From IMG/VR virus record IMGVR_UViG_2778261298_000001: a stretch of 34,989 nt of DNA. One strand, written 5' to 3'. Position 1 is the stretch's first letter. Each line of letters opens with the position of its first letter. Under the pieces are notes generated by a model. It saw only the letters and a program-made list of their open reading frames with translations. It ran no database searches and was not told where the DNA came from. Made by a program: the position numbers and the translations under genes. Positions 3,722 through 34,702 of the stretch are shown one piece after another. Origin of the DNA: a virus. Taxonomy: Duplodnaviria > Heunggongvirae > Uroviricota > Caudoviricetes.

Positions 3722-3948
3722 TGGCTGATGCAATGGATCTCGTACAGCAGCGCGTTGAAGAAGAACGCCAACGCCATATCCGTGCTGCCCGTGCCAAAAC
3801 GCCGGGCGTGTCCCGCGTGCTTTGCGTTGAGTGTGAAGCGCCAATTCCGCCAGCACGCCGCCGTGCCATTCCTGGAGTGCAGCTTTGCATTACCTGCCAG
3901 GAAATCGCAGAGCTGAAAGGCAAACATTACAACGGAGGTGCTGTATGA
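3721..3948 (+). CDS. TraR/DksA-family C4 zinc-finger protein
   Basis: CVEC...(17 aa)...CITC four-cysteine motif in a 75-aa protein; start overlaps the upstream stop (TGATG). Confidence 0.7.
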   Translation: MADAMDLVQQRVEEERQRHIRAARAKTPGVSRVLCVECEAPIPPARRRAIPGVQLCITCQEIAELKGKHYNGGAV

Positions 3949-4802
3949 GCACCATCCTGAAATGGGCGGGTAATAAAACCGCCATTATGTCCGAACTGAA
4001 AAAATACCTTCCTGCTGGCCCGCGACTGGTTGAACCTTTCGCGGGTTCTTGTGCTGTGATGATGGCGACGGATTACCCCAGCTATCTGGTTGCGGATATT
4101 AATCCTGATTTAATCAACCTCTATAAAAAGATTGCCGCTGATTGCGAAGCGTTTATATCTCGTGCCAAAGTTTTATTTGGGGAAGCAAACAGTGAGCTGG
4201 CTTATTACAACATAAGACAGGAGTTTAATTACTCAACTGAAATTACTGATTTCATGAAGGCGATATATTTCCTGTATCTCAATCGTCACGGTTACCGTGG
4301 TTTATGTCGCTATAACAAGAGCGGGTATTTCAACATTCCCTACGGTAATTATAAAAATCCGTATTTCCCTGAAAAAGAAATTCGCGCATTTGCAGAGAAA
4401 GCCCAGCGGGCAACGTTTATCTGCGCGAGCTTTGATGAAACGCTGGCGATGCTGCAGGTGGGGGATGTGGTGTATTGCGATCCGCCGTATGACGGTACGT
4501 TTTCCGGCTATCACACTGATGGTTTCACTGAAGATGACCAGTATCACCTGGCATCCATTCTTGAACATCGGTCATCAGAAGGACATCCGGTCATTGTTTC
4601 TAACAATGACACATCCCTGATTCGTTCGCTGTATCGCAATTTTACTCACCACTATATCAAGGCAAAACGCAGCATCGGCGTGTCAGCTGGCGAGGGTAAA
4701 TCTGCAACAGAAATCATTGCTGTTTCCGGGCCGAGCTGCTGGTTGGGATTTGATCCTTCGCGTGGCGTGGATAGTTCTGCCGTGTACGGAGTGTGTGTAT
4801 GA
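3945..4802 (+). CDS. dam: Phage-encoded DNA adenine methyltransferase (Dam family)
   Basis: N-terminal LKWAGNK...EPFAGS AdoMet-binding region and catalytic DPPY motif (VYCDPPYDG). GGAGG RBS upstream of the ATG at 3945. Confidence 0.85.
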
Positions 4803-8021: not shown

Positions 8022-8111
8022 CGCGCGTTGCAAACCATGTCGATGCTGTTATCATTTGCAGCAAGTTTTCAAAGTGCTAAAGCATTCTTTAATTCCAAGG
8101 TAGGTATAGAT

Positions 8112-10052
8112 ATGATAGCCGGGTTGTTTATCCGTAACGTCAAAACATATCAAGGCATAAATTATATTCCTTTGACAGATGCTCCAAATTTTAGCGGTTT
8201 TTTAGGAAATAATGGGATAGGGAAAAGCTCAATACTTGAGGCATTGGATGTAATATTTAATGCTAAAGAGTGGAATTATAATACAGCTGTCAAAAAGAGC
8301 GGCATAGAAAAAACCAGCCCACATATTGTACCGGTTTTTATATTGGAGGAGGATTTTTTTGATTCTGAGACACTCCCTTTTGCAAAAACGCTAGATGCTT
8401 TAGCTAGGGAGGTTAGCTTAGAGGACGCTACAAACTCACAAACAAAAACTATTCTTGAAAATTTTATAAGTCATCGTGATAGACTTTTTGCACGAAATGA
8501 TATGCAAGGGCAGTTAATTATTCCTATTGGACGCCTTCATAATAATAATATGTCATTATCTGTTTTAGCAGGTAGAAGTCTATCTACTATAATGGAAAAA
8601 GATATATTTGGTGCCGGATTCAAGTTAAGTGAAGGTATAGAGTTAGCTAAACATTTTCAAGTTTTATTTGATTATATCACTGGTAAGTTAGAATATTTAT
8701 ATATACCAAAAGAGATTGATACTGAGGTTTTTACTAAGCTTGAGAGTATTGGAACTCAAGTATTGATGGGTGAATCGCTGCATGAAATTCTTGATAGAAT
8801 AGTTGGTGAGTCAAAAATTGGAGAAATCAACAGAGAACTAAGCGGATTTCTTGAAGATATCTCAACGAAGCTAGTTAACTATACGTATAGAACGCCTTCG
8901 GATAGGCAAAAAAGAATTCAAAAAAAAGAAGTCTATAACTTAATTATACAAGCGTTTTTTAACGTCAGAAAATTACATAAAACCCACAATGGCGAGCATT
9001 TTTTAGAAATTAGTAATTTGAGTTCGGGGGAAAAGCAGAAGGCTATTATTGATGTTGCGCATGCATTGCTGACAAAGCATAGAAGTAATAGTGATAATTT
9101 AATCATAGCCATAGATGAACCTGAGTCTTCATTGCACATGTCTGCTTGTTTTGAACAATTTCAAGCGTTATCAGAACTAAGTTTAGGATGTAGGCAACTA
9201 TTGTTTTCCTCTCATTGGTATGGTTTTCTCCCCACCTTGGAAAAGGGAACTGTTACAATAATAACTAAAAAAAATAATGAGCATCTTTTTGATCTGATCA
9301 ATTTAGCATCTTACCGGGAAGAAATAAAACAACTTGTTCGAGATAGTAGGGGAAAGTTACCATTTGATATTAGAATTAAAAGTATGAATGATTTTACTCA
9401 GTCATTATTATCTAGTGCAACAGGTGAGAAACCATATAATTGGTTGATTTGTGAGGGTTCATCGGAAAGAATTTATCTTTCAGCATATTTTAAGGATTTG
9501 ATAAAGAATCATAATCTTCGTATTGTACCTGTTGGGGGGGCGTCGGAAATTAAAAAAATATATAACTATCTCTCTGCCTGCTATAAGGATGTCGAAGGGG
9601 AGATTACCGGAAATATATATTTGTTAGCTGATACTGATAGCCAGTTGGTCAGATATGACGTCGGAACATATCAAAGATTACATTGTAAAAGATTTGTTTA
9701 TGATTCGTCTAAAAACAGGGCAATCTTAGTTAAGATAGACTCAAATCCGGTATCGCCTGCAACTGAGATAGAGGATGTTTTGAACGCAAAAATCTATTAC
9801 CAGACCTTATTGTCATTTGCTGGTGATTACGATTATTTAAGTTTCATTAATAATATTGATGCTCCAAGTGATAATCTGGAATCTTACTCAGCTCTTGATC
9901 TCAGAGTTAGTGAAAAAAATGCCATAAATAGATTTTTTGATGATGGAAATAATAAGTTTTTATTCGCAAAAAGATATGTTGAATTAATGACGGAAGAAAA
10001 TAGTGTTCCAGAGTGGATTAGTAAGATTAGAGAGGTAATGACTTCAGCTTAG
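8112..10052 (+). CDS. ABC-type ATPase fused to a TOPRIM-like nuclease domain (OLD/Gabija/PARIS-like); candidate anti-phage defence cargo
   Basis: Walker A GNNGIGKSS (about 8205..8231), ABC signature LSSGEKQ (about 9013..9039), Walker B/D-loop LIIAIDEPESSLH (9099..9125) and H-loop-like LLFSSHW. Then a TOPRIM-like LICEGSSE (about 9441..9467), PVGGASE and LLADTDS (about 9621..9641). Start set at the ATG at 8112 (MIAGLFIRNVK, typical ABC N-terminal strand). Markedly AT-rich compared with flanking phage genes. Confidence 0.75.
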   Translation: MIAGLFIRNVKTYQGINYIPLTDAPNFSGFLGNNGIGKSSILEALDVIFNAKEWNYNTAVKKSGIEKTSPHIVPVFILEEDFFDSETLPFAKTLDALAREVSLEDATNSQTKTILENFISHRDRLFARNDMQGQLIIPIGRLHNNNMSLSVLAGRSLSTIMEKDIFGAGFKLSEGIELAKHFQVLFDYITGKLEYLYIPKEIDTEVFTKLESIGTQVLMGESLHEILDRIVGESKIGEINRELSGFLEDISTKLVNYTYRTPSDRQKRIQKKEVYNLIIQAFFNVRKLHKTHNGEHFLEISNLSSGEKQKAIIDVAHALLTKHRSNSDNLIIAIDEPESSLHMSACFEQFQALSELSLGCRQLLFSSHWYGFLPTLEKGTVTIITKKNNEHLFDLINLASYREEIKQLVRDSRGKLPFDIRIKSMNDFTQSLLSSATGEKPYNWLICEGSSERIYLSAYFKDLIKNHNLRIVPVGGASEIKKIYNYLSACYKDVEGEITGNIYLLADTDSQLVRYDVGTYQRLHCKRFVYDSSKNRAILVKIDSNPVSPATEIEDVLNAKIYYQTLLSFAGDYDYLSFINNIDAPSDNLESYSALDLRVSEKNAINRFFDDGNNKFLFAKRYVELMTEENSVPEWISKIREVMTSA

Positions 10053-19825: not shown

Positions 19826-20720
19826 CCTTTCGCAGTTGCCTGCACCGCAGATTGTGGATGTGCCGGACTTTGAGACGCTGCTTGCCGAACGCAAGGCAGA
19901 ATTTGTGGCGCTTCATCCGAAAGATGAGCAGGAAGCCGTGATCCGCACGCTGGAACTGGAATCTGAACCCGTCACTAAATTGTTGCAGGAGAACGCTTAC
20001 CGTGAGTTGCTTCTGCGCCAGCGCATTAACGAAGCCGCGCAGGCGGTGATGGTGGCTTACGCGATGGGCGGCGATCTTGACCAGCTCGCTGCCAACTACA
20101 ACGTGACACGCCTGACGGTGACGCCTGCTGATAATGATGCTGTGCCGCCCGTTGCAGCTGTGATGGAAAGCGATGAAGCGTTACGCCTGCGTGTGCCTGC
20201 AGCCTTTGAAGGGCTTTCTGTTGCGGGGCCAACTGCAGCTTATGAATTTCATGCCCGAAGCGCCGACGGTCGGGTGGCGGATGCCAGTGCAACCAGCCCG
20301 GCACCTGCAGAGGTGGTGCTGACTGTCCTTAGCCGCGAAGGCGATGGAGCTGCAGAAAAAGACCTGCTGGACGTGGTGGAAAAAGCTCTGAACAGTGAGA
20401 ACGTCCGCCCGGTGGCTGACCGTCTGACGGTTCGCAGCGCAGAAATCATCCCGTATCGCGTGGAAGCCACCATTTTTCTCTATCCGGGACCGGAAGCAGA
20501 GCCGGTAATGGCAGCGGCAAAAGCCAGCCTGCAGAAGTACATCGCCAGTCAGACGCGTCTTGGTCGGGATATTCGCCGTAGCGCCATCTTTGCCGCCCTG
20601 CATGTTGAGGGTGTGCAGCGTGTGGAGCTGGCTTCTCCTCTGGCGGATGTGGTCCTGAACAAAACACAGGCGGCATCATGTACGCAGTGGAGCGTAACCA
20701 ACGGAGGAACGGATGAATAG
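19812..20720 (+). CDS. J: Baseplate assembly protein (P2 gpJ family)
   Basis: Start at the ATG at 19812 (MAVIDLSQLP...). Confidence 0.8.
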   Translation: MAVIDLSQLPAPQIVDVPDFETLLAERKAEFVALHPKDEQEAVIRTLELESEPVTKLLQENAYRELLLRQRINEAAQAVMVAYAMGGDLDQLAANYNVTRLTVTPADNDAVPPVAAVMESDEALRLRVPAAFEGLSVAGPTAAYEFHARSADGRVADASATSPAPAEVVLTVLSREGDGAAEKDLLDVVEKALNSENVRPVADRLTVRSAEIIPYRVEATIFLYPGPEAEPVMAAAKASLQKYIASQTRLGRDIRRSAIFAALHVEGVQRVELASPLADVVLNKTQAASCTQWSVTNGGTDE

Positions 20721-21318
20721 TCTGCTGCCACCGGGTTCAACTTCACTGGAGCGCCGACTGGCGCAAACCTGTAGCGGGATTTCTGATCTGCAGGTGCCGC
20801 TGCGTGACTTGTGGAATCCGGCTACCTGTCCGGTCAGCTTCCTGCCTTATCTCGCCTGGGCGTTCTCTGTGGATCGCTGGGACGAGGGCTGGACAGAAAG
20901 CGTCAAACGCCAGGTAGTGAAGGATGCTTTTTATATTCATCAGCATAAAGGAACCACCAGTGCCGTGCGGCGGGTGGTGGAACCGTTCGGATTCCTGATC
21001 CGCATTATTGAGTGGTGGCAGACCGGAGAAACACCGGGCACGTTTCGCCTGGATATCGGCGTGCAGGACCAGGGCATCACTGAAGATACCTATCTGGAAC
21101 TTGAGCGGCTGATAAGCGATGCCAAACCATGTAGCCGTCACATGATCGGCATGTCCATCAATCTGCAGACCAGCGGTCCGCATTGGGTGGGGGCCGCCAG
21201 CTATCTTGGCGAAGAAATCACGATCTATCCGTATATCAACGAAACAATTATTTCTGGCGGCACCGCGCATGAAGGCGGGGCGGTCCATGTTATTGACACA
21301 ATGAGAGTGAATCCATGA
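20713..21318 (+). CDS. I: Baseplate/tail fibre assembly protein (P2 gpI family)
   Basis: 201 aa; position between J and H. Confidence 0.8.
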
Positions 21319-22715
21319 GCACAAAATTTTATACCCTGCTGACGGATATTGGCGCGGCGAAACTTGCCAGCGCCGCCGCGCTCGGTGTGCCGCTAAAAAT
21401 TACCCATATGGCGGTCGGCGATGGCGGCGGAGTATTGCCAACGCCAGACTCAAAGCAGACTGCACTGGTAAATGAGAAACGCCGGGCTGCGCTGAATATG
21501 CTCTATATCGACCCGCAGAACAGCAGCCAGATTATTGCCGAACAGGTGATCCCTGAAAACGAGGGCGGTTGGTGGATACGTGAAGTGGGCTTGTTTGATG
21601 AGTCCGGGGCATTGATTGCCGTGGGCAACTGCCCGGAAAGCTATAAGCCGCAACTGGCTGAAGGTAGCGGGCGCACTCAGACCGTGCGCATGGTGCTGAT
21701 TACCAGCAGCACGGACAATATCACCCTGAAAATCGACCCTGCCGTAGTGCTGGCAACCCGCAAGTATGTGGATGACAAGGCACTGGAGCTGAAGGTGTAC
21801 GCGGATGATCAGATGGCAAAACATCTTGCCGCACCGGACCCGCATTCACAGTATGCACCCAAAGAAAGTCCGACGTTTACCGGGACACCCAAAGCGCCAA
21901 CGCCAGCCGCAGGGAATAACACCACGCAGATTGCGACCACCGCGTTTGTTCAGGCGGCTCTGACGGCTCTTATTAATGGTGCGCCAGCCACGTTGGACAC
22001 GCTGAAAGAAATAGCCGCAGCCATTAACAATGATCCGAAATTCAGTACCACCATTAACAATGCGCTGGCACTGAAAGCGCCGCTGTCGAGTCCGGCACTC
22101 ACCGGAACGCCAACCGCACCTACTGCGGCACAGTCGGTCAACAATACACAGATTGCCACCACGGCATTTGTGAAATCGGCGATTGCGGCAATGGTGGGTT
22201 CTGCACCTGCGGCACTGGATACACTGAACGAACTGGCGGCAGCGCTGGGGAATGACCCGAACTTTGCCACGACAATGCTTAATGCGCTGGCAGGTAAACA
22301 ACCGCTGGACAATACGCTGACTAATTTGAGTGGAAAGGATGTAGCTGGTCTTCTCACATACCTTGGTTTGGGAGAAGCGGCTAAAAGGAATGTAGGGACA
22401 GGGGCAAATCAGATACCTGATATGGGTAGCTTCACGCTTTCTGTTTCAGGTACTGGATATCAAAAATTACCATCAGGTTTTATTCTTCAGTGGGGCTCAA
22501 TCGGCGCACCAGGCATTGCACAGGATGTAGTAACCCATTTCCCGATTGCATTTCCAAACAGATGTCTGCGTGTTTTGGTTTCACAAGACTACACACCAGA
22601 TAGCGGGTCTGTTGGTTATATTGCCTGTGCAGGTTTTAGTCCCGACCCGGTTAAATTTATATCCAGAGCCAGTACTCCTGGCCTCGGCGCTTCATTTTTA
22701 GCGTTAGGCTGTTAA
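21315..22715 (+). CDS. H: Tail fibre protein (P2 gpH family); C-terminal part lies inside the invertible segment
   Basis: 466 aa. The constant part runs to ...LLTYLGLGE at the crossover site; internal tandem repeat containing [11 protein letters not shown] twice. Confidence 0.85.
22351..22376. repeat. Left Gin/Hin-type crossover site of the invertible segment
   Basis: TTCTCACATACC-TT-GGTTTGGGAGAA, a 26-bp imperfect palindrome resembling hix/gix sites. Its right half is the reverse complement of the left half of the site at 24198..24223. Confidence 0.7.
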
Positions 22716-22736
22716 TTTAGCTATATGGAGTGAAAA

Positions 22737-23177
22737 ATGAATTACATATATTCCGCGACTACAAACTCTTTCTATCCGCTGGAGATGAAAGAGGATTACA
22801 CTCAAGCTGACTCATGGCCAGATGATGCTGTTGAAGTTGATGAGCAAGCGTATATTGAGTTTTCCGGATTACCGCCGAAAGGAAAAATCCGTATCGCTGG
22901 AGAAAATGGTTTTCCTGCATGGTCTGAAATTCCACCACCAACACATGAGGAACAGATTGCTGCAGCCGAACTGGAAAAGCAGCAACTGATTAATCAGGCC
23001 AACGATTATATGAACAGTAAACAATGGCCTGGTAAAGCGGCTATTGGTCGTCTGAAAGGTGAGGAACTGGCGCAATATAATTTGTGGCTGGATTATCTGG
23101 ACGCACTGGAACTGGTTGATACCTCCAGTGCTCCAGATATTGAATGGCCTACGCCTCCGGCAGTTCAGGCCAGATGA
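22737..23177 (+). CDS. Tail fibre assembly chaperone (Tfa/gpG-like), orientation A
   Basis: 146 aa with GGAG RBS; C-terminal ...D.S.APD.EWP..P motif shared with the convergent Tfa copy. Confidence 0.8.
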   Translation: MNYIYSATTNSFYPLEMKEDYTQADSWPDDAVEVDEQAYIEFSGLPPKGKIRIAGENGFPAWSEIPPPTHEEQIAAAELEKQQLINQANDYMNSKQWPGKAAIGRLKGEELAQYNLWLDYLDALELVDTSSAPDIEWPTPPAVQAR

Positions 23178-23751
23178 CATCCGGCGCGGTGCTGGTATCT
23201 GTTGCCGTCACCGCGTCAATGTAATCCAGCACGGCGTTAAGTCGGGTTGTTTCTGCCTGCGTCAACTTCCGTCCGGCCTGTAATTTCAGCTGAATCAGAC
23301 TAATGGAAGCCATTGCTGCATCAATCAGTGACTGGCGCTGTGCTTCTGCTGCGTCTACTGCGGCACTATGCTGTGCCTCAGTATCCGTCACCCATTTCTC
23401 ACCATCCCATTTATCATATGGCGTTAACGGGGCGATAGTGGTTGTATTTTCAGGGTAATCACCCGGAGCTGTGATTTCTTTCGATTCTCCTGTTTCGGTG
23501 CTATAGATGATTTCACCGCGATGGTCTGGCACATATTCCCATGAGTTAAAATCTGCAGAACGGCAGATTGCATAACCAGCTTTATGTGTAACTGGTGCAT
23601 CTAAACAAGAACATGCCGGTATACCGACGCCAACCGCAAGATATTCAGTTGATGTGGAAATATATTCCCGCGTTTCACCATCATAATTATAAACGGTTAT
23701 GTCTCCCGCTTTTATGGCAATGAGTTCGTTATTTAATACGGCTTTATTCAT
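23149..23751 (-). CDS. Tail fibre assembly chaperone (Tfa), alternate copy
   Basis: 200 aa; C-terminal ...DTSTAPDVIWPELPEA mirrors the plus-strand Tfa; inside the invertible segment. Confidence 0.75.
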   Translation of the reverse strand: MNKAVLNNELIAIKAGDITVYNYDGETREYISTSTEYLAVGVGIPACSCLDAPVTHKAGYAICRSADFNSWEYVPDHRGEIIYSTETGESKEITAPGDYPENTTTIAPLTPYDKWDGEKWVTDTEAQHSAAVDAAEAQRQSLIDAAMASISLIQLKLQAGRKLTQAETTRLNAVLDYIDAVTATDTSTAPDVIWPELPEA

Positions 23752-24210
23752 CAGGCAGCCCTCACGATATAATTAAAGGCAATGTTACGAGGTCGGTTTT
23801 CGTTTGCAGTTGGAACAACTCTGGAAGCATCGAATGTTACTCGCTTTGCATAACCACCTTTAATTGAATCAGATGAAGCATCTCCGATGACGCTGGTTGT
23901 AAAAACGCCAGAATCAGAAGGGTAGGTATTAAACCTGACATCCACTAATGCACCAATTATATTTCGAATGGCATCTCCCTGTGACGAAAGCAAGCTACGG
24001 TTAGTATCTATTCCTCTTCCGTCATCCCAGCCACGAATGAACTCACCACGTAAATCAGGCAATTTATTTGTCGGGTAAGCCTTTGCCAGTTCCGGGTATT
24101 CTTCAGCAGAAAAAGCCGCACCGTTGCATTTCAGCCAGCCTGTTGGCGGAGTGGCGGAAGGCCACGGAACAGGCACACCAACGGGTAATGCCGAACCTTC
24201 TCCCAAACCA
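23751..24210 (-). CDS. Alternate tail fibre C-terminal (receptor-binding) segment, promoterless in the current orientation
   Basis: Minus-strand ORF whose 5' end crosses the right crossover site and encodes ...GLGEGSALP..., the same junction motif as in H. It would be fused to the H N-terminus after inversion. Confidence 0.7.
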
Positions 24211-24223
24211 ACGTTTAAGAAAA
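24198..24223. repeat. Right Gin/Hin-type crossover site of the invertible segment
   Basis: TTCTCCCAAACC-AA-CGTTTAAGAAAA; inverted relative to the site at 22351..22376 (shared 15-mer TTGGTTTGGGAGAAG on opposite strands). Confidence 0.7.
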
Positions 24224-24278
24224 TGCAGCGATTACGGCTAACTGGCATCATCCCCTATTTTTATTCAGGGAGATGATC

Positions 24279-24845
24279 ATGCTTATTGGCTATGTACGCG
24301 TGTCAACAAATGACCAGAACACCGATTTGCAACGTAATGCGCTGAACTGCGCGGGATGTGAGCGGATTTTTGAGGACAAAATCAGTGGCACTAAGTCCGA
24401 CAGACCGGGGCTTAAAAAACTGCTCAGGACACTATTGGCAGGAGACACGCTGGTTGTCTGGAAGCTGGACAGGTTGGGGCGCAGTATGCGGCATCTTGTT
24501 ACGCTGATAGAAGAGTTGCGCCAGCGTGGTGTGAATTTCCGAAGCCTGACTGACAGTATTGATACCAGTACCCCAATGGGCCGTTTCTTTTTTCATGTCA
24601 TGGGTGCCCTGGCTGAAATGGAACGCGAACTGATAGTTGAACGTACCCGGGCAGGGCTGGCTGCAGCTCGTGCTAAAGGCAGAGTAGGTGGACGCCGTCC
24701 TAAGTTGACCACTGAACAGTGGGCACAGATTGGACGTTTACTCGAGGCCGGAGAATCAAGACAGCGTATTGCACTGATTTTTGATGTAGGCGTTTCTACC
24801 ATTTATCGAAAATTTCCGGCAAATAAGAGCAATAAATCTCCCTGA
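24279..24845 (+). CDS. Serine recombinase, DNA invertase (Gin/Hin/Pin/Cin family)
   Basis: MLIGYVRVSTNDQNTDLQ catalytic-serine N-terminus and C-terminal HTH (GRRPKLT...I). Start at the ATG at 24279 with a GGGAG RBS. Confidence 0.9.
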   Translation: MLIGYVRVSTNDQNTDLQRNALNCAGCERIFEDKISGTKSDRPGLKKLLRTLLAGDTLVVWKLDRLGRSMRHLVTLIEELRQRGVNFRSLTDSIDTSTPMGRFFFHVMGALAEMERELIVERTRAGLAAARAKGRVGGRRPKLTTEQWAQIGRLLEAGESRQRIALIFDVGVSTIYRKFPANKSNKSP

Positions 24846-24893
24846 ATCAGCTTTATTTTGATTATCCCTGAAAGCAGACAAATACCGTCATTT

Positions 24894-24911
24894 TGTGTGA
24901 ATAACGGTACA
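24894..24911. promoter_or_regulatory. Ogr/B-type late promoter activator site (TGT-N12-ACA) upstream of FI
   Basis: TGTgtgaataacggtACA, about 77 bp upstream of the FI start. Confidence 0.5.
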
Positions 24912-24987
24912 ACTGCGCTTAGCTGTTTGTCAGGCACAATCACTTCAACATAGGGCGAAGCCTAATCCAATCAGGAGGTTCGCCACT

Positions 24988-26160
24988 ATGGCTCAGGATT
25001 ACCACCACGGGGTGCGCGTTGTTGAAGTCAACGAAGGCACCCGATCCATTACCACGGTGAGCACCGCCATCGTGGGTATGGTCTGCACGGGCGATGATGC
25101 CGATGCAAAAATGTTTCCTCTTAATAAACCCGTGCTGATCACTGATGTGCTGACTGCCAGCGGTAAAGCGGGTGAGTCCGGCACGCTGGCCCGTTCGCTG
25201 GATGCCATCGCTGACCAGGCAAAACCCGTGACCGTTGTTGTGCGTGTGCCGCAGGGTGAAACGGAAGAAGAAACCACGACCAATATCATCGGCGCAGTGA
25301 CTGCTGAAGGTAAAAAAACAGGCATGAAAGCTCTGTTATCTGCTCAGTCACAGCTCGGCGTTAAACCGCGCATTCTGGGTGTACCAGGTCACGACACCAA
25401 GGCGGTAGCTACTGAGTTGCTGAGTGTGGCGCAAAGCCTGCGTGGGTTTGCTTACCTGTCAGCGTATGGCTGCAAGACTGTGCAGGAGGCAATCACTTAC
25501 CGTGAAAACTTCAGTCAGCGTGAAGGAATGCTGATCTGGCCCGACTTTACTGGCTGGGACACGGTGCTGAATGCCGAAGCAACGGCTTATGCCACCGCCC
25601 GTGCGCTCGGTCTGCGCGCCAAAATTGATGAGCAGACCGGATGGCACAAAAGCCTGTCCAACGTGGGCGTGAACGGTGTCACCGGAATTTCTGCTGATGT
25701 GTTCTGGGATCTGCAGGACCCGGCAACCGATGCAGGTCTGCTGAACCAGAACGACGTCACCACGCTTGTGCGCAAGGATGGTTTCCGCTTCTGGGGTTCC
25801 CGCTGTCTGAGCGATGATCCGCTTTTTGCTTTCGAAAACTACACCCGCACGGCGCAGGTGCTGACGGACACGATGGCAGAAGCACACATGTGGGCGGTGG
25901 ACAAACCGCTGAACCCGTCGCTGGCCCGCGACATTATCGAAGGTATCCGCGCCAAAATGCGCAGCCTGGTCAGTCAGGGCTATCTCATTGGTGGTGATTG
26001 CTGGCTGGACGAGTCGGTGAACGACAAAGACACGCTTAAAGCCGGAAAACTCACCATCGACTACGACTACACGCCAGTGCCGCCACTTGAAAATCTGATG
26101 CTGCGCCAGCGCATCACCGATCAGTACCTGGTGAATTTCGCCAGCCAGGTCAGCGCGTAA
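24988..26160 (+). CDS. FI: Tail sheath protein (P2 gpFI family)
   Basis: 390 aa; AGGAGG RBS. Confidence 0.85.
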
Positions 26161-26169
26161 GGGGACAAC

Positions 26170-26685
26170 ATGGCTTTACCACGCAAATTAAAACATCTGA
26201 ACCTGTTTAACGACGGGAACAACTGGCAGGGAATCGTTGAGTCGCTGACGCTGCCGAAATTCACCCGCAAATATGAGAAGTATCGCGGCGGCGGTATGCC
26301 GGGGGCGGTGGATGTGGATCTGGGACTGGATGACAGTGCACTGGATACAGAATTTTCTATTGGTGGTACCGAACTGCTGCTGTTTAAGCAGATGGGCAAA
26401 TCCACGGTGGATGGCATCCAGTTGCGCTTTACCGGCTCTATCCAGCGTGACGATACCGGGGAAGTGCAGGCCGTGGAGCTTGTGGTGCGTGGACGTCACA
26501 AAGAAGTGGATTCCGGCGAGTGGAAGACGGGCGAAAGCAACACCACCAAAGTGACCAGTACCAACAGCTACGCGAAGCTGACCATCAATGGTGAGGTGCT
26601 CTATGAAGTGGACCTTATCAACATGGTGGAAATTGTGGACGGTGTGGACCTGATGGAAGCGCACCGCAACGCCCTCGGCCTCTGA
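26170..26685 (+). CDS. FII: Tail tube protein (P2 gpFII family)
   Basis: 171 aa, following the sheath gene. Confidence 0.85.
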   Translation: MALPRKLKHLNLFNDGNNWQGIVESLTLPKFTRKYEKYRGGGMPGAVDVDLGLDDSALDTEFSIGGTELLLFKQMGKSTVDGIQLRFTGSIQRDDTGEVQAVELVVRGRHKEVDSGEWKTGESNTTKVTSTNSYAKLTINGEVLYEVDLINMVEIVDGVDLMEAHRNALGL

Positions 26686-32134: not shown

Positions 32135-32220
32135 CGCTGCCGCCATTTTGTCGCCATCGTTAAAAAGCAGTGCTTCTAACATCATGATTTTAAAAGGCAT
32201 AAATTTCAGACAACAAAAAA

Positions 32221-32263
32221 CCCATCAACCTTGAACCGAAATGGCGGGGTTGATGGGCTCCAC
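32221..32263 (-). terminator. Probable intrinsic terminator of ybjL (host side)
   Basis: On the minus strand: CCCATCAACC...GGTTGATGGG stem followed by TTTTTTG. Confidence 0.45.
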
Positions 32264-32369
32264 AAAATGGGGACATCAAAGAAAAGCAGTGGCACTAATT
32301 AAGACTGATGCCCTGCGGAAAAGTTCTGCGGTTGTGCAAAAAAATTTCATTTTCAGGGCAACTTCAGTT

Positions 32370-34055
32370 TTATCCTAATCCTGGCCATACCATGACGATG
32401 ATTGTCCCTGCCAGCGTCAGCAGGACGTTGGCGATTGCGTAGGTGCCCGCATAGCCCAGCGCAGGGATGTTACTGCGAGCTGTATCACTGATGATCTCCA
32501 TTGCCGGCGCGCAGGTGCGTGCGCCCATCATTGCGCCGAACAACAGTGCGCGGTTCATTCGCAATACATAAGCACCGAACAAGAAACAGATAACCACGGG
32601 CACAAGACTGACAATTAATCCGGCAATCAACATCTGACCGCCAATCGCGCCCAGGCCGTTATTAATACCGCTACCGGCGCTCAGACCAACGCCTGCCATA
32701 AACACCATCAAGCCGAACTCTTTCACCATGCTTAATGCACCTTGCGGAATGTAACCGAAGGTCGGGTGATTAGCACGCATAAAGCCCAGCATAATTCCGG
32801 CGAATAACAACCCGGCAGCGTTCCCCATGCCGAAACTGAATGTGCTGAACTGGAAGGTGATCATCCCGATCATCAGCCCAATAACAAAGAAGGCGCAAAA
32901 TGCCAGCAGGTCAGTGACCTGGCTGTGAATCGAGATAAAGCCGATGCGATCGGCGATGGTTTTTACGCGACGGGCATCACCGCTGACTTGTAAAACGTCA
33001 CCTTTGTTAAGCACGACGTTGTCATCTATCGGCATCTCAATCTGGCTACGAATGACGCGGTTAAGGAAGCAACCGTGATCGGTCAACTTCAGTTGTGCGA
33101 GACGTTTACCTACAGCGTTATGGTTTTTAACGACCACTTCTTCAGTGACGATACGCATGTCGAGAAGGTCACGATCGAAAACTTCTTTACCGTTACGGAA
33201 GCTGGGATCGAGTCGGGCATGGGCGTCGGGATAGCCTACCAACGCTATTTCATCGCCCATTTGTAGCACGGCATCACCGTCTGGATTTGCCAGAATCCCG
33301 TTACGTCGAATACGTTCAATGTAGCAGCCGGTTTGTCGATAAATACCCAGTTCACGCAGATTTTTGCCGTCGGTCCAGGCCACCAGCTCCGGGCCGACGC
33401 GATAGGCGCGGATCACCGGTAAATAAACCTTACGGTTGGCATCAGTGTCCAGGCCACGTTCGCGGGCGATTTGCTGGGCGCTGGTCTGTAAGTCCTGATG
33501 CTGCAATTTCGGCAAGTAACGCGCACCAACAATCAAACTCACCAGACCGATTAAATAGGTTAAGGCATACCCGAGGCTCAGATTATCCAGTGCCAGTGAG
33601 AGCTGCCTGCTTTCCATGCCGGAATGACGCAGTGTATCGCCAGCACCGACCAGAACCGGTGTCGACGTCATAGAGCCTGCTAACATACCGGCCGTCAGGC
33701 CAATATCCCAGCCAAACAGCTTACCTAACCCTAAGGCGATCACCAGCGCACTGCCAACCATCACCAGTGCTAACATTAGGTAATTTTTCCCATCGCGAAA
33801 AAAAATGGAAAAAAAGTTCGGTCCGGCTTCAACCCCAACACAGAAAATAAACAGCATAAAGCCAAGATTAAGCGCATCGGTGTTAATGCTGAAATGTTGT
33901 TGGCCTAATAACAGCGATACGACTAAAACGCCAATGGAATTACCCAGTTGGATCGAACCAAGTCGTAACTTTCCGAGACATAGCCCAAGCGCGAGGACCA
34001 CAAATAATAACAGAATGTAATTCCCATTTAACAATTCGGCGACGTTTATATTCAC
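32370..34055 (-). CDS. ybjL: Putative transport protein YbjL (AAE-family transporter with TrkA-C domains)
   Basis: 561-aa multi-TM protein whose sequence I recognise as E. coli YbjL; the neighbours ybjM and grxA agree. Confidence 0.9.
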
Positions 34056-34324: not shown

Positions 34325-34702
34325 GTGAAACATAAACAACGTTGGGCGGGGGCAATCTGCTGTTTTGTCCTCTTCATTGTGGTGTGCCTTTTTCTGGCGA
34401 CGCACATGAAAGGCGCTTTTCGGGCTGCCGGGCATCCTGAAATCGGCTTGCTGTTTTTCATTCTTCCTGGAGCAGTTGCCAGTTTCTTTTCACAGCGTAG
34501 AGAAGTCCTGAAACCTCTGTTTGGCGCAATGCTGGCGGCACCCTGTTCAATGCTTATTATGCGGCTGTTTTTTTCACCGACCCGCTCATTCTGGCAAGAG
34601 CTGGCATGGTTACTAAGCGCGGTGTTCTGGTGTGCGCTGGGGGCACTGTGTTTCTTATTTATCAGTAGTTTGTTTAAACCACAGCACAGAAAAAATCAGT
34701 AA
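34325..34702 (+). CDS. ybjM: Inner membrane protein YbjM
   Basis: 125-aa hydrophobic protein, GTG start; conserved position between ybjL and grxA. Confidence 0.8.
   Translation: MKHKQRWAGAICCFVLFIVVCLFLATHMKGAFRAAGHPEIGLLFFILPGAVASFFSQRREVLKPLFGAMLAAPCSMLIMRLFFSPTRSFWQELAWLLSAVFWCALGALCFLFISSLFKPQHRKNQ

Follow-up and report, generated by a model that had tools for sequence, protein, structure and literature searches.

The Pin/Gin type of tail-fibre inversion has been known as a mechanism since the 1980s. In the G segment of phage Mu and the C segment of P1, a constant fibre N-terminus is combined with alternative C-termini, each accompanied by its own Tfa protein (S/U versus S'/U'). The crossover sites of the Mu Gin system, 26 bp in length, lie within the fibre ORF, and the invertase gene is situated just outside the segment. 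Hin of Salmonella belongs to the same invertase subclass and acts on 26-bp hix sites with central AA/TT, but its inversion flips a promoter and not a protein C-terminus, and the recombinase gene lies inside the segment. The enhancer of Hin, a 65-bp element within the recombinase gene, carries a Fis site at both ends and is found about 100 bp from one hix site (PMC3798978).

Such switches have also been found in prophages of the type considered here. Sequencing and PCR demonstrated in 2014 that both orientations coexist in P2-like prophages of EPEC and in e14, and for the P2-like prophages two forms were described, a simple two-variant switch and a shufflon-like one with three repeats (PMC4272514). 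Moreover, a survey reported invertases with inverted neighbouring genes at the P2 hotspot (bioRxiv 10.1101/2024.10.15.618418). Hence, P2-like prophages are already documented as carriers of this established mechanism, and for this reason the locus described here opens no new biological question. We read the tail-fibre region of this P2-like E. coli prophage as a Fis/enhancer-dependent inversion switch that belongs to the Hin/Gin/Cin/Pin class and has Pin of e14 as its closest counterpart, and give this reading a probability of roughly 90%.

The prophage and its invertible module

The window, i.e. the whole analysed stretch of 34,989 nucleotides, was compared with the hallmarks of P2-like phages, for which we took an integrase, a CI-type repressor, gpA, portal/terminase, the V-W-J-I-H baseplate and fibre genes, the sheath FI and the tube FII. 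Gene order and hallmark proteins identify a P2-like (Peduoviridae) prophage. The element codes for integrase, CI repressor, replication protein gpA, portal, terminase, capsid, lysis and tail functions, with the Pfam domains Tail_P2_I, Phage_GPA, Phage_sheath, Phage_integrase and Phage_CI_repr. Its best phage matches are P2-like phages, and the annotation of the RefSeq neighbours agrees with this. From integrase to gpD the prophage looks complete. The invertible module is placed between gpI/H and the sheath gene FI, and it comprises the following features, with their Pfam matches in brackets:

21315-22715, plus strand: tail-fibre gene H, 466 aa (Phage_tail_fib N-terminus, Gp53-like_C tip)
21315..22364, plus strand: constant, P2 gpH-like N-terminal part of H, up to the crossover point (Phage_tail_fib, E=7e-65)
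22351..22376, no strand: left crossover site, pix/hix-like, 26 bp, central TT at 22363-22364, inside the H codons LLTYLGLGE
22377..22715, plus strand: variable tip A, now fused to H, 112 aa past the site (Gp53-like_C, E=8e-14)
22737..23177, plus strand: chaperone A (tfa), 146 aa, partner of tip A (Caudo_TAP, E=2e-38)
23149..23751, minus strand: chaperone B (second tfa), 200 aa, partner of tip B (Caudo_TAP, E=2e-32)
23751..24197, minus strand: variable tip B, 148 aa, silent in the present orientation (Collar domain, E=1e-15)
24198..24223, no strand: right crossover site, 26 bp, central AA at 24210-24211, outer half non-coding and upstream of the invertase
24279..24845, plus strand: serine DNA invertase, 188 aa counted from MLIGY (Resolvase, E=1e-52; HTH_7, E=1e-15)
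24300..24363, no strand: predicted recombinational enhancer, 64 bp, in the 5' part of the invertase coding sequence, with a G-N13-C core at each end

Scans for tRNA genes and Rfam families gave nothing inside the invertible segment; their only match was RybB in the host flank.

Crossover sites

The first-pass annotation had proposed two inverted 26-bp sites flanking about 1.85 kb, both located in codons of a conserved ...GLGE... junction, and each of these points was recovered independently. The longest inverted repeat within 20000-26500 has its arms at 22351-22377 and 24197-24223. One 26-mer reads TTCTCACATACCTTGGTTTGGGAGAA, and the other site, written as its reverse complement, reads TTTTCTTAAACGTTGGTTTGGGAGAA. 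The left and right sites are identical at 21 of 26 positions, including the central TT and all of the inner 12 nt. Thus, the arrangement corresponds to that of a DNA invertase system with two inverted, imperfectly palindromic 26-bp sites sharing identical central dinucleotides. A degenerate site pattern matched only these two places in the 35 kb (expected number 0.00 in 100 shuffles). A weight matrix trained on 45 distinct invertase-proximal sites from other loci likewise found the same two sites only in the window, with 30.8 and 39.1 bits at a lax threshold of 12 bits. They are separated by 1,821 nt, or by 1,846 nt from one crossover centre to the other, and share one reading frame with the codons ...LGLGE (right site FLNVGLGE). 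A site homologous to the right one was found 58-121 nt (mostly 66-89) 5' of the invertase start for 53 of 82 related genes.

Among the described systems, the P segment of e14 in E. coli K-12 is most similar. The right site agrees with the right site of e14 at 25/26 positions, and the left site with the left site of e14 (CTCTCGAAAACCTTGGTTTGGGAGAA) at 23/26; the e14 segment measures 1,827 nt versus 1,846 nt here. The order tip-tfa on the plus strand, tfa-tip on the minus strand, site and invertase is also the same, with the tfa genes overlapping by 29 nt in both. However, e14 is a defective lambdoid element with a truncated fibre gene, in which stfE is annotated as a pseudogene, whereas the P2-like tail operon that houses the segment analysed here looks complete. 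The Mu G segment differs in being about 3 kb long, with TC/GA instead of TT/AA as central dinucleotide and with a transposable backbone instead of a P2-like one. The invertible loci of P2-like prophages (EPEC E2348/69; Z/fun hotspot), which we compared by description, resemble ours in phage type and position.

A shufflon-like layout with more than two sites, as in one EPEC P2-like prophage or in P1/p15B, was rejected, because the window holds only two sites even at the lax weight-matrix threshold. The inverted repeat I10 (23087-23104 / 23213-23230) was also rejected as an additional site, since it reflects LDY(L/I)DA, a motif conserved at the C-terminus of both convergent Tfa proteins.

Fibre tips and chaperones

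The H gene follows a homologue of P2 gpI at 20713-21318, and its homology to the H genes of other phages ends exactly at 22376 (matches H28-H30, query 1-1062). Beyond the site, two convergent cassettes of tip plus tfa on the two strands, as had been suggested earlier, are borne out by the ORFs and their Pfam domains. The proposed comparison of the two C-termini with known domains was carried out and resulted in Gp53-like_C for tip A and Collar for tip B, with matches to fibre structures for both. For tip A the matches to solved fibre tips were weak, namely 4mtm, a putative tail fibre protein, and 6cxb/6cl5 (R1-pyocin fibres). The solved relatives of tip B are 9cuy, a short tail fibre (E=1e-28), and T4 gp37 (2xgf). 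The ORF that contains tip B extends over 23751-24251 on the minus strand (166 aa), and the ORFs of the silent cassette are intact. Chaperone B, the 3' end of whose gene overlaps tfaA by 29 nt, is 93.5% identical to TfaE of e14 over its full length, and tip B is about 60% identical to StfE of e14. Chaperone A shares 61% identity with TfaP of e14 over the C-terminal 102 residues; tip A is only distantly related to StfP (25% identity). The tips of Mu have no detectable similarity to tip A or B, and its Tfa is weakly similar (33% over 73 aa). The pair of cassettes found here, a gp53-like and an StfE-like tip, is one of many combinations.

When the segment is inverted in silico, H joins tip B in frame and the 466-aa fibre is replaced by one of 502 aa. 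Together with a naturally flipped, 99%-identical prophage described below, this supports the swap of tip and chaperone claimed in the first-pass annotation. The locus accordingly shows the organisation of a switch of tail-fibre C-termini, with a site inside the fibre ORF, either C-terminus fused in frame and an own Tfa for each cassette. Judged from their sequences, tips A and B are likely to recognise different receptors, since they belong to different folds or families (Gp53-like_C versus Collar).

Invertase

The invertase gene begins 68 bp past the right site, with a further in-frame ATG two codons upstream (24273); the 567-nt form is annotated in RefSeq for the related loci L001 and L002. 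The protein is a small serine recombinase with Ser9 and a C-terminal helix-turn-helix. It aligns without gaps to residues 1-184 of Gin (structures 3uj3/4m6f, E=1.6e-92 over 184 residues). With 311 bits to Gin versus 121 bits to gamma-delta resolvase, it is nearer to the founding invertases than to the resolvases. It is 86% identical to PinE of e14 and about 75-80% identical to Mu Gin (75% by BLAST). Hence, a serine invertase directly outside the right site, as annotated before, is found, but its assignment to Gin needs refinement: by sequence, it is closer to Pin of e14 than to Gin or Hin.

In the alignment, the intact ORF retains all active-site and regulatory residues of Gin. Ser9, His106, Met114 and the FFFHVMGALAEMEREL helix are those of wild-type Gin, and the change M114V, which makes Gin independent of Fis (PMC3575834), is not present. 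Furthermore, R153/L154 align with R154/L155 of Hin if the offset is taken from the Gin alignment; PMC3798978 names these Hin residues as contacts to Fis. These residues suggest that the invertase depends on Fis.

Predicted recombinational enhancer

A 64-bp element in the 5' part of the invertase gene fits, on the sequence level, the Fis-dependent recombinational enhancer of Hin and Gin. Its predicted Fis-type cores are located at 24300-24314 and 24349-24363, which are 49 bp apart (centre to centre) in the register used; the Fis sites of Hin are spaced by 48 bp. From the predicted enhancer to the right site, the distance is 96.5 bp, also centre to centre. A cis-acting element of about 65 bp with terminal Fis sites is further supported by the conservation of third codon positions. 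In a set of 75 distinct genes, invertase codons 7-12 and 24-30 form the two most conserved windows of the whole gene, and the conservation of the stronger of the two was reached in only 0.3% of the shuffles in a permutation test. The two G-N13-C cores fall together with these windows. The centre of the second predicted core (GCGCGGGATGTGAGC) is rich in G/C, which sets it apart from high-affinity Fis sites; a similar sequence is found at the homologous position of Mu gin. The prediction was anchored on the description in PMC3798978 and on synonymous-site conservation, as the Salmonella loci analysed included no true hin. One of them, L061, carries another tail-fibre-linked invertase.

Both orientations among related genomes

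In the near-identical prophage L001 (E. coli VTB97432v) the segment is flipped. Window positions 22360-24214 align on the opposite strand with 99.9% identity (2 mismatches in 1,855), with breakpoints inside both sites and flanks that are 99.4% and 99.0% identical. The gene order there is H (1,509 nt)-tfaE / tfa-gp53-like / recombinase, and the annotated CDS of 1,509 nt encodes the 502-aa fusion. A census of the junctions in complete E. coli genomes (at least 80% coverage) found the flipped form in 33 genomes and the form present here in 24. Hence, both orientations occur, as seen between genomes. The same architecture is widespread in many genera; a pair of inverted sites was present in 33 of 48 loci.

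Comparisons between genomes show the end products alone and not the responsible enzyme. In principle, assembly error could also account for both orientations, as could general, RecA-dependent homologous recombination across the short inverted repeats. We regard this as extremely unlikely, because the perfect shared repeat spans only about 15-18 bp, which is below the length for efficient RecA recombination, and because the breakpoints coincide with a 26-bp hix/pix-consensus site beside a dedicated invertase. Moreover, the same configuration recurs in many genera, and both forms exist in many independently finished genomes. Assemblies of strains that carry elements of this kind are prone to breaks or collapse at the locus.

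It is also improbable that the locus is a fossil, i.e. that its parts were inherited from an active ancestor while inversion was lost through an unexpressed invertase or a permanently silent prophage, leaving tip A only. The scan of 22300-25050 for promoters and terminators could be taken in its favour, as it gave counts at or below shuffle expectation and no above-chance promoter 5' of the invertase. Modules of this kind can indeed persist in defective elements, as in the cryptic prophage e14; however, even e14 still inverts in culture (PMC4272514). Furthermore, the prophage looks complete, the ORFs of the silent cassette are undamaged, and so is that of the invertase with its full set of Gin active-site and regulatory residues. 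In addition, the flipped segment of L001 differs at only 2 of 1,855 bases, which implies a very recent inversion in the lineage. The switch is probably active in this particular strain.

Proposed mechanism and implications

For the Pin-like inversion switch, the following course can be proposed. Dimers of the invertase (24279-24845) would bind to the two 26-bp sites and, together with Fis on the 64-bp predicted enhancer in the 5' end of the enzyme's own gene, would form an invertasome. Both sites would then be cleaved at the central TT/AA, one pair of subunits would be rotated by 180 degrees and religation would leave the 1,846 bp inverted. In the present orientation, the late operon would produce the constant part of H with tip A, that is, a gp53-like-tipped fibre of 466 aa, and the 146-aa chaperone. 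After inversion, the constant part would be joined to tip B to give the 502-aa fibre, whose collar-domain tip is related to StfE of e14, accompanied by the TfaE-like chaperone of 200 aa. A population of lysogens would thus release two kinds of virions differing in their receptor-binding tips, and, on the model of Mu G and P1 C, the inversion may switch the host range.

An inversion that is real but was selected for another role, serving the bacterium by tailocin-like targeting or by cross-activation of other invertible segments, appears very unlikely to us. A benefit for the host has been put forward as speculation by Goldberg et al. (PMC4272514), and an action in trans on other Pin-type segments is plausible, given that the sites and their e14 counterparts hardly differ. 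But the element carries a full set of phage functions and hence is no stripped tailocin cluster, and what the inversion exchanges, a fibre tip with its chaperone, is just what is exchanged in Mu and P1.

The switch is of importance chiefly for annotation. The silent minus-strand ORF of 166 aa should be regarded as an alternative C-terminus of H and not as an independent gene; the prophage encodes two fibre variants, and host-range prediction for P2-like phages must take both tips into account.

More tentatively, the invertase may act in trans on co-resident Pin-type segments, and their invertases on the segment described here; the tail-fibre states of several prophages would then be linked in a single switching network. 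Across genera, the sites might also serve as exchange points for cassettes of tip plus chaperone among P2-like, lambdoid and Mu-like phages. We consider these ideas possible but rather doubtful. The former draws on the sites, which e14 and many other prophage segments of the same species share in almost identical form, and the latter is supported by the homology to Klebsiella and E. coli phages, which breaks off precisely at the edges of the sites (window 22360 and 22376). Cassettes bounded by such sites could be used as natural swap units in phage or tailocin engineering. Near-identical copies of the locus are already annotated in public records, and the same set of H / tfa / tfa / invertase is annotated in the deposited phages Cartapus, pro483, 500465-1 and Klebsiella KP12.

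The tail-fibre inversion switch

The invertible segment within the tail-fibre gene H, with its two alternative C-termini and two Tfa assembly chaperones, described in the first-pass annotation is real and was correctly interpreted, and a switch of this kind is already known for P2-like phages. Only two refinements are to be made: the switch is of the Pin type (cryptic E. coli K-12 prophage e14) and not specifically Gin/Hin, and a predicted enhancer is assigned to 24300-24363. The open reading frames and domains agree with the proposed layout of an H C-terminus plus tfa on the plus strand, an alternate C-terminus plus tfa on the minus strand, and an invertase.

Features of the switch (coordinates, strand, description)
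21315-22715, +, H, 466 aa; Phage_tail_fib N-terminal domain, Gp53-like_C tip (tip A)
22351-22376, left crossover site, 26-mer TTCTCACATACCTTGGTTTGGGAGAA
22737-23177, +, Caudo_TAP protein (Tfa), 146 aa
23149-23751, -, Caudo_TAP protein (Tfa), 200 aa
23751-24251, -, Collar-domain ORF (tip B)
24198-24223, right crossover site, 26-mer as reverse complement TTTTCTTAAACGTTGGTTTGGGAGAA
24273/24279-24845, +, Resolvase and HTH_7 protein (invertase)
24300-24314, predicted Fis core 1, G-N13-C 15-mer GTGTCAACAAATGAC, coincides with a synonymous conservation patch
24349-24363, predicted Fis core 2, G-N13-C 15-mer GCGCGGGATGTGAGC, coincides with a synonymous conservation patch

The convergent tfa genes overlap at their 3' ends by 29 nt (23149-23177), as do tfaP/tfaE of e14, and together they carry an 18-nt inverted repeat (23087-23104 / 23213-23230) encoding a shared C-terminal LDY(L/I)DA motif.

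Crossover sites and evidence for inversion

Two inverted 26-bp hix/gix-like sites had been proposed, and the longest inverted repeat within 20000-26500 has its arms there (22351-22377 and 24197-24223). After reverse complementation of the right site, both are identical at 21/26 positions and have the central TT and the entire inner half-site GGTTTGGGAGAA in common. A degenerate site pattern matched the 35-kb window only at these two sites and gave 0 matches in 100 dinucleotide-preserving shuffles. Likewise, invertase-proximal sites from 45 other, distinct loci were used to derive a weight matrix, which retrieved only the left and right sites from the window even at a lax 12-bit threshold (30.8 and 39.1 bits). 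Their suggested location in ...GLGE... codons was confirmed, with ...LGLGE under both sites in the same reading frame. The sites of the e14 P segment match those of the window at 25/26 and 23/26 positions and have the same TT/AA core, whereas the Mu gix sites have a TC/GA core.

In silico inversion at the central dinucleotides preserved both 26-mers and placed the minus-strand tip in frame behind H codons 1-354, resulting in a 502-aa fibre. Among complete E. coli genomes, a 700-bp query across the hypothetical flipped left junction was found in 33 genomes (coverage at least 80%, top identity 99.9%) and the junction as it stands in 24. The top flipped match, E. coli VTB97432v (L001), bears the same prophage with flanks 99.4% (left) and 99.0% (right) identical, while window 22360-24214 lies on the opposite strand at 99.9% identity (2 mismatches in 1,855). 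The RefSeq annotation of this locus lists a 1,509-nt fibre gene and tfaE, a gp53-like fragment and tfa on the opposite strand, and then the recombinase. Both the in-frame fusion and this flipped prophage agree with the claim that inversion swaps tip and chaperone. The flank and segment alignments overlap solely inside the 26-bp sites; therefore, the breakpoints lie where they had been placed. This genome comparison provides natural-history evidence that inversion at these sites has occurred in the lineage, which is a separate matter from activity in the source strain.

It is very unlikely that the orientations result from RecA-mediated inversion or an assembly artefact, against which stand the perfect repeat of just 15-18 bp and the recurrence of both orientations across many finished genomes. 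A fossil switch that no longer inverts is also unlikely, though somewhat less so, because the genes are intact and the flipped relative diverges by only 2 in 1,855.

Invertase and predicted enhancer

Of the Gin-family invertase postulated beside the right site, the serine invertase stands, but it is closer to e14 PinE (86% BLAST identity) than to Gin (75%). It aligns gap-free with Mu Gin residues 1-184 (E=1.6e-92), its FFFHVMGALAEMEREL helix is the same as in wild-type Gin, and it keeps Ser9 and Met114; Gin was crystallised as mutants S9A (inactive) and M114V (Fis-independent) (PMC3575834). R153/L154 are the counterparts (offset via 1hcr alignment) of Hin R154/L155, which are critical to Fis activation according to the Johnson laboratory (PMC3798978).

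For the enhancer, 79 loci with invertase relatives from other genomes were combined with the earlier loci, and 75 distinct coding sequences were aligned. Synonymous variation is high across the gene (mean third-position majority fraction 0.54), with conserved patches at codons 7-12 (0.885) and 24-30 (about 0.79-0.80), the two top 5-codon windows; the stronger value was attained in just 0.3% of permutations. The two G-N13-C cores delimit a 64-bp element, 24300-24363, with 96.5 bp between the right-site centre and the first core. The Hin enhancer, 65 bp long and with Fis sites at both ends, is located roughly 100 bp from one hix site, and its spacer has AT-rich ATTTA and TAATG tracts (PMC3798978); the corresponding spacer here has ATTTG and TAATG. 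Hence, there is good sequence-level evidence for a putative recombinational enhancer with two putative Fis sites.

All sequence-testable membership features of the Hin/Gin/Cin/Pin systems were found, and the system appears to work like these classical ones. By analogy, Fis dependence of the switch and an effect on host range are predicted.

Tips, chaperones and mosaic boundaries

The minus-strand cassette represents the StfE/TfaE pair of e14 (60% and 93.5% identity). Tip B contains the collar domain known from fibres of the T4 gp37/gp12 type, and it matched a solved short tail fibre (E=1e-28). The C-terminal domain of tip A is gp53-like and matched an R1-pyocin fibre and related tips weakly, and the tip A chaperone is e14 TfaP-like in the C-terminal part. 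As the two tips are not related in fold, they probably recognise different receptors.

Homology to other phages ends precisely at the site edges: for several Klebsiella phages, the H genes align with query 1-1062 (window 21315-22376), and matches confined to the cassette begin at query 1046 (window 22360). The sites therefore double as mosaic boundaries.

Occurrence in other genomes

Of the related loci, 48 extend 4 kb or more upstream, and 33 of these carry exactly two sites in inverted orientation, with a spacing of 1.3-3.1 kb. Three loci (L009, L053, L057) have three sites upstream of the invertase, which makes them candidate multi-segment (shufflon-like) fibre switches; an EPEC case offers a parallel (PMC4272514). 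A Pantoea allii P2-type locus is among these three. Loci in Dryocola, Siccibacter, Pseudocitrobacter, Pantoea and Mixta share the gpI-H-segment-invertase-sheath arrangement, and sequences related to tip A and to tip B occur in either orientation.

In many Enterobacterales drafts, the assembly ends 65-130 bp upstream of the invertase, where the invertase-proximal crossover site lies, or there are contigs of ~715 bp with the invertase alone (L005, L017 and L037 are among the loci affected); coverage at L005 was 132, compared with 41 on a contig next to it in that assembly. Such breaks and short contigs are an expected artefact of orientations coexisting in the sequenced culture or of several collapsed copies.

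Goldberg et al. found mixed orientations in clonal cultures by sequencing and PCR for e14 and two EPEC P2-like prophages (PMC4272514), and a 2024 survey reported invertases with inverted neighbours at the same P2 hotspot (bioRxiv 10.1101/2024.10.15.618418). Furthermore, the same gene set is annotated in several deposited P2-like phages, and RefSeq holds near-identical copies of the locus.

Prophage setting

A nearly complete P2-like prophage makes up the window, with integrase, CI-type repressor, Dam-like methyltransferase, gpA, portal, terminase, head, lysis and baseplate genes followed by gpI-H, and with sheath, tube, tape measure and gpD downstream of the invertase. From this gene order, the invertible module occupies the position where P2 itself has H-G and then the Z/fun hotspot. 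Since the prophage appears complete, inversion serving the host instead of phage host range is not favoured and seems quite improbable.

A 674-aa ORF (8028-10052, +) fills the slot between gpA and the portal gene where P2 has its old/tin cargo, and its GC content is low at 33-35% versus ~55% for the prophage. From its AAA_15/AAA_21 ATPase and OLD-like TOPRIM domains its product is classified as an OLD-family nuclease, with moderate PADLOC matches only (AriA, AbiLi, Old), and it is probably anti-phage defence cargo. The early region also encodes a D12-class (Dam-like) N6-adenine methyltransferase (3885-4802, +; top PADLOC match 'orphan methyltransferase').

Directly past the last prophage genes, close to the start of host DNA, lies the RybB sRNA gene (32212-32290, -; Rfam 105 bits), followed by a ybjL-like gene (32370-34055, -) and ybjM (34325-34702, +), which suggests integration at or beside rybB.
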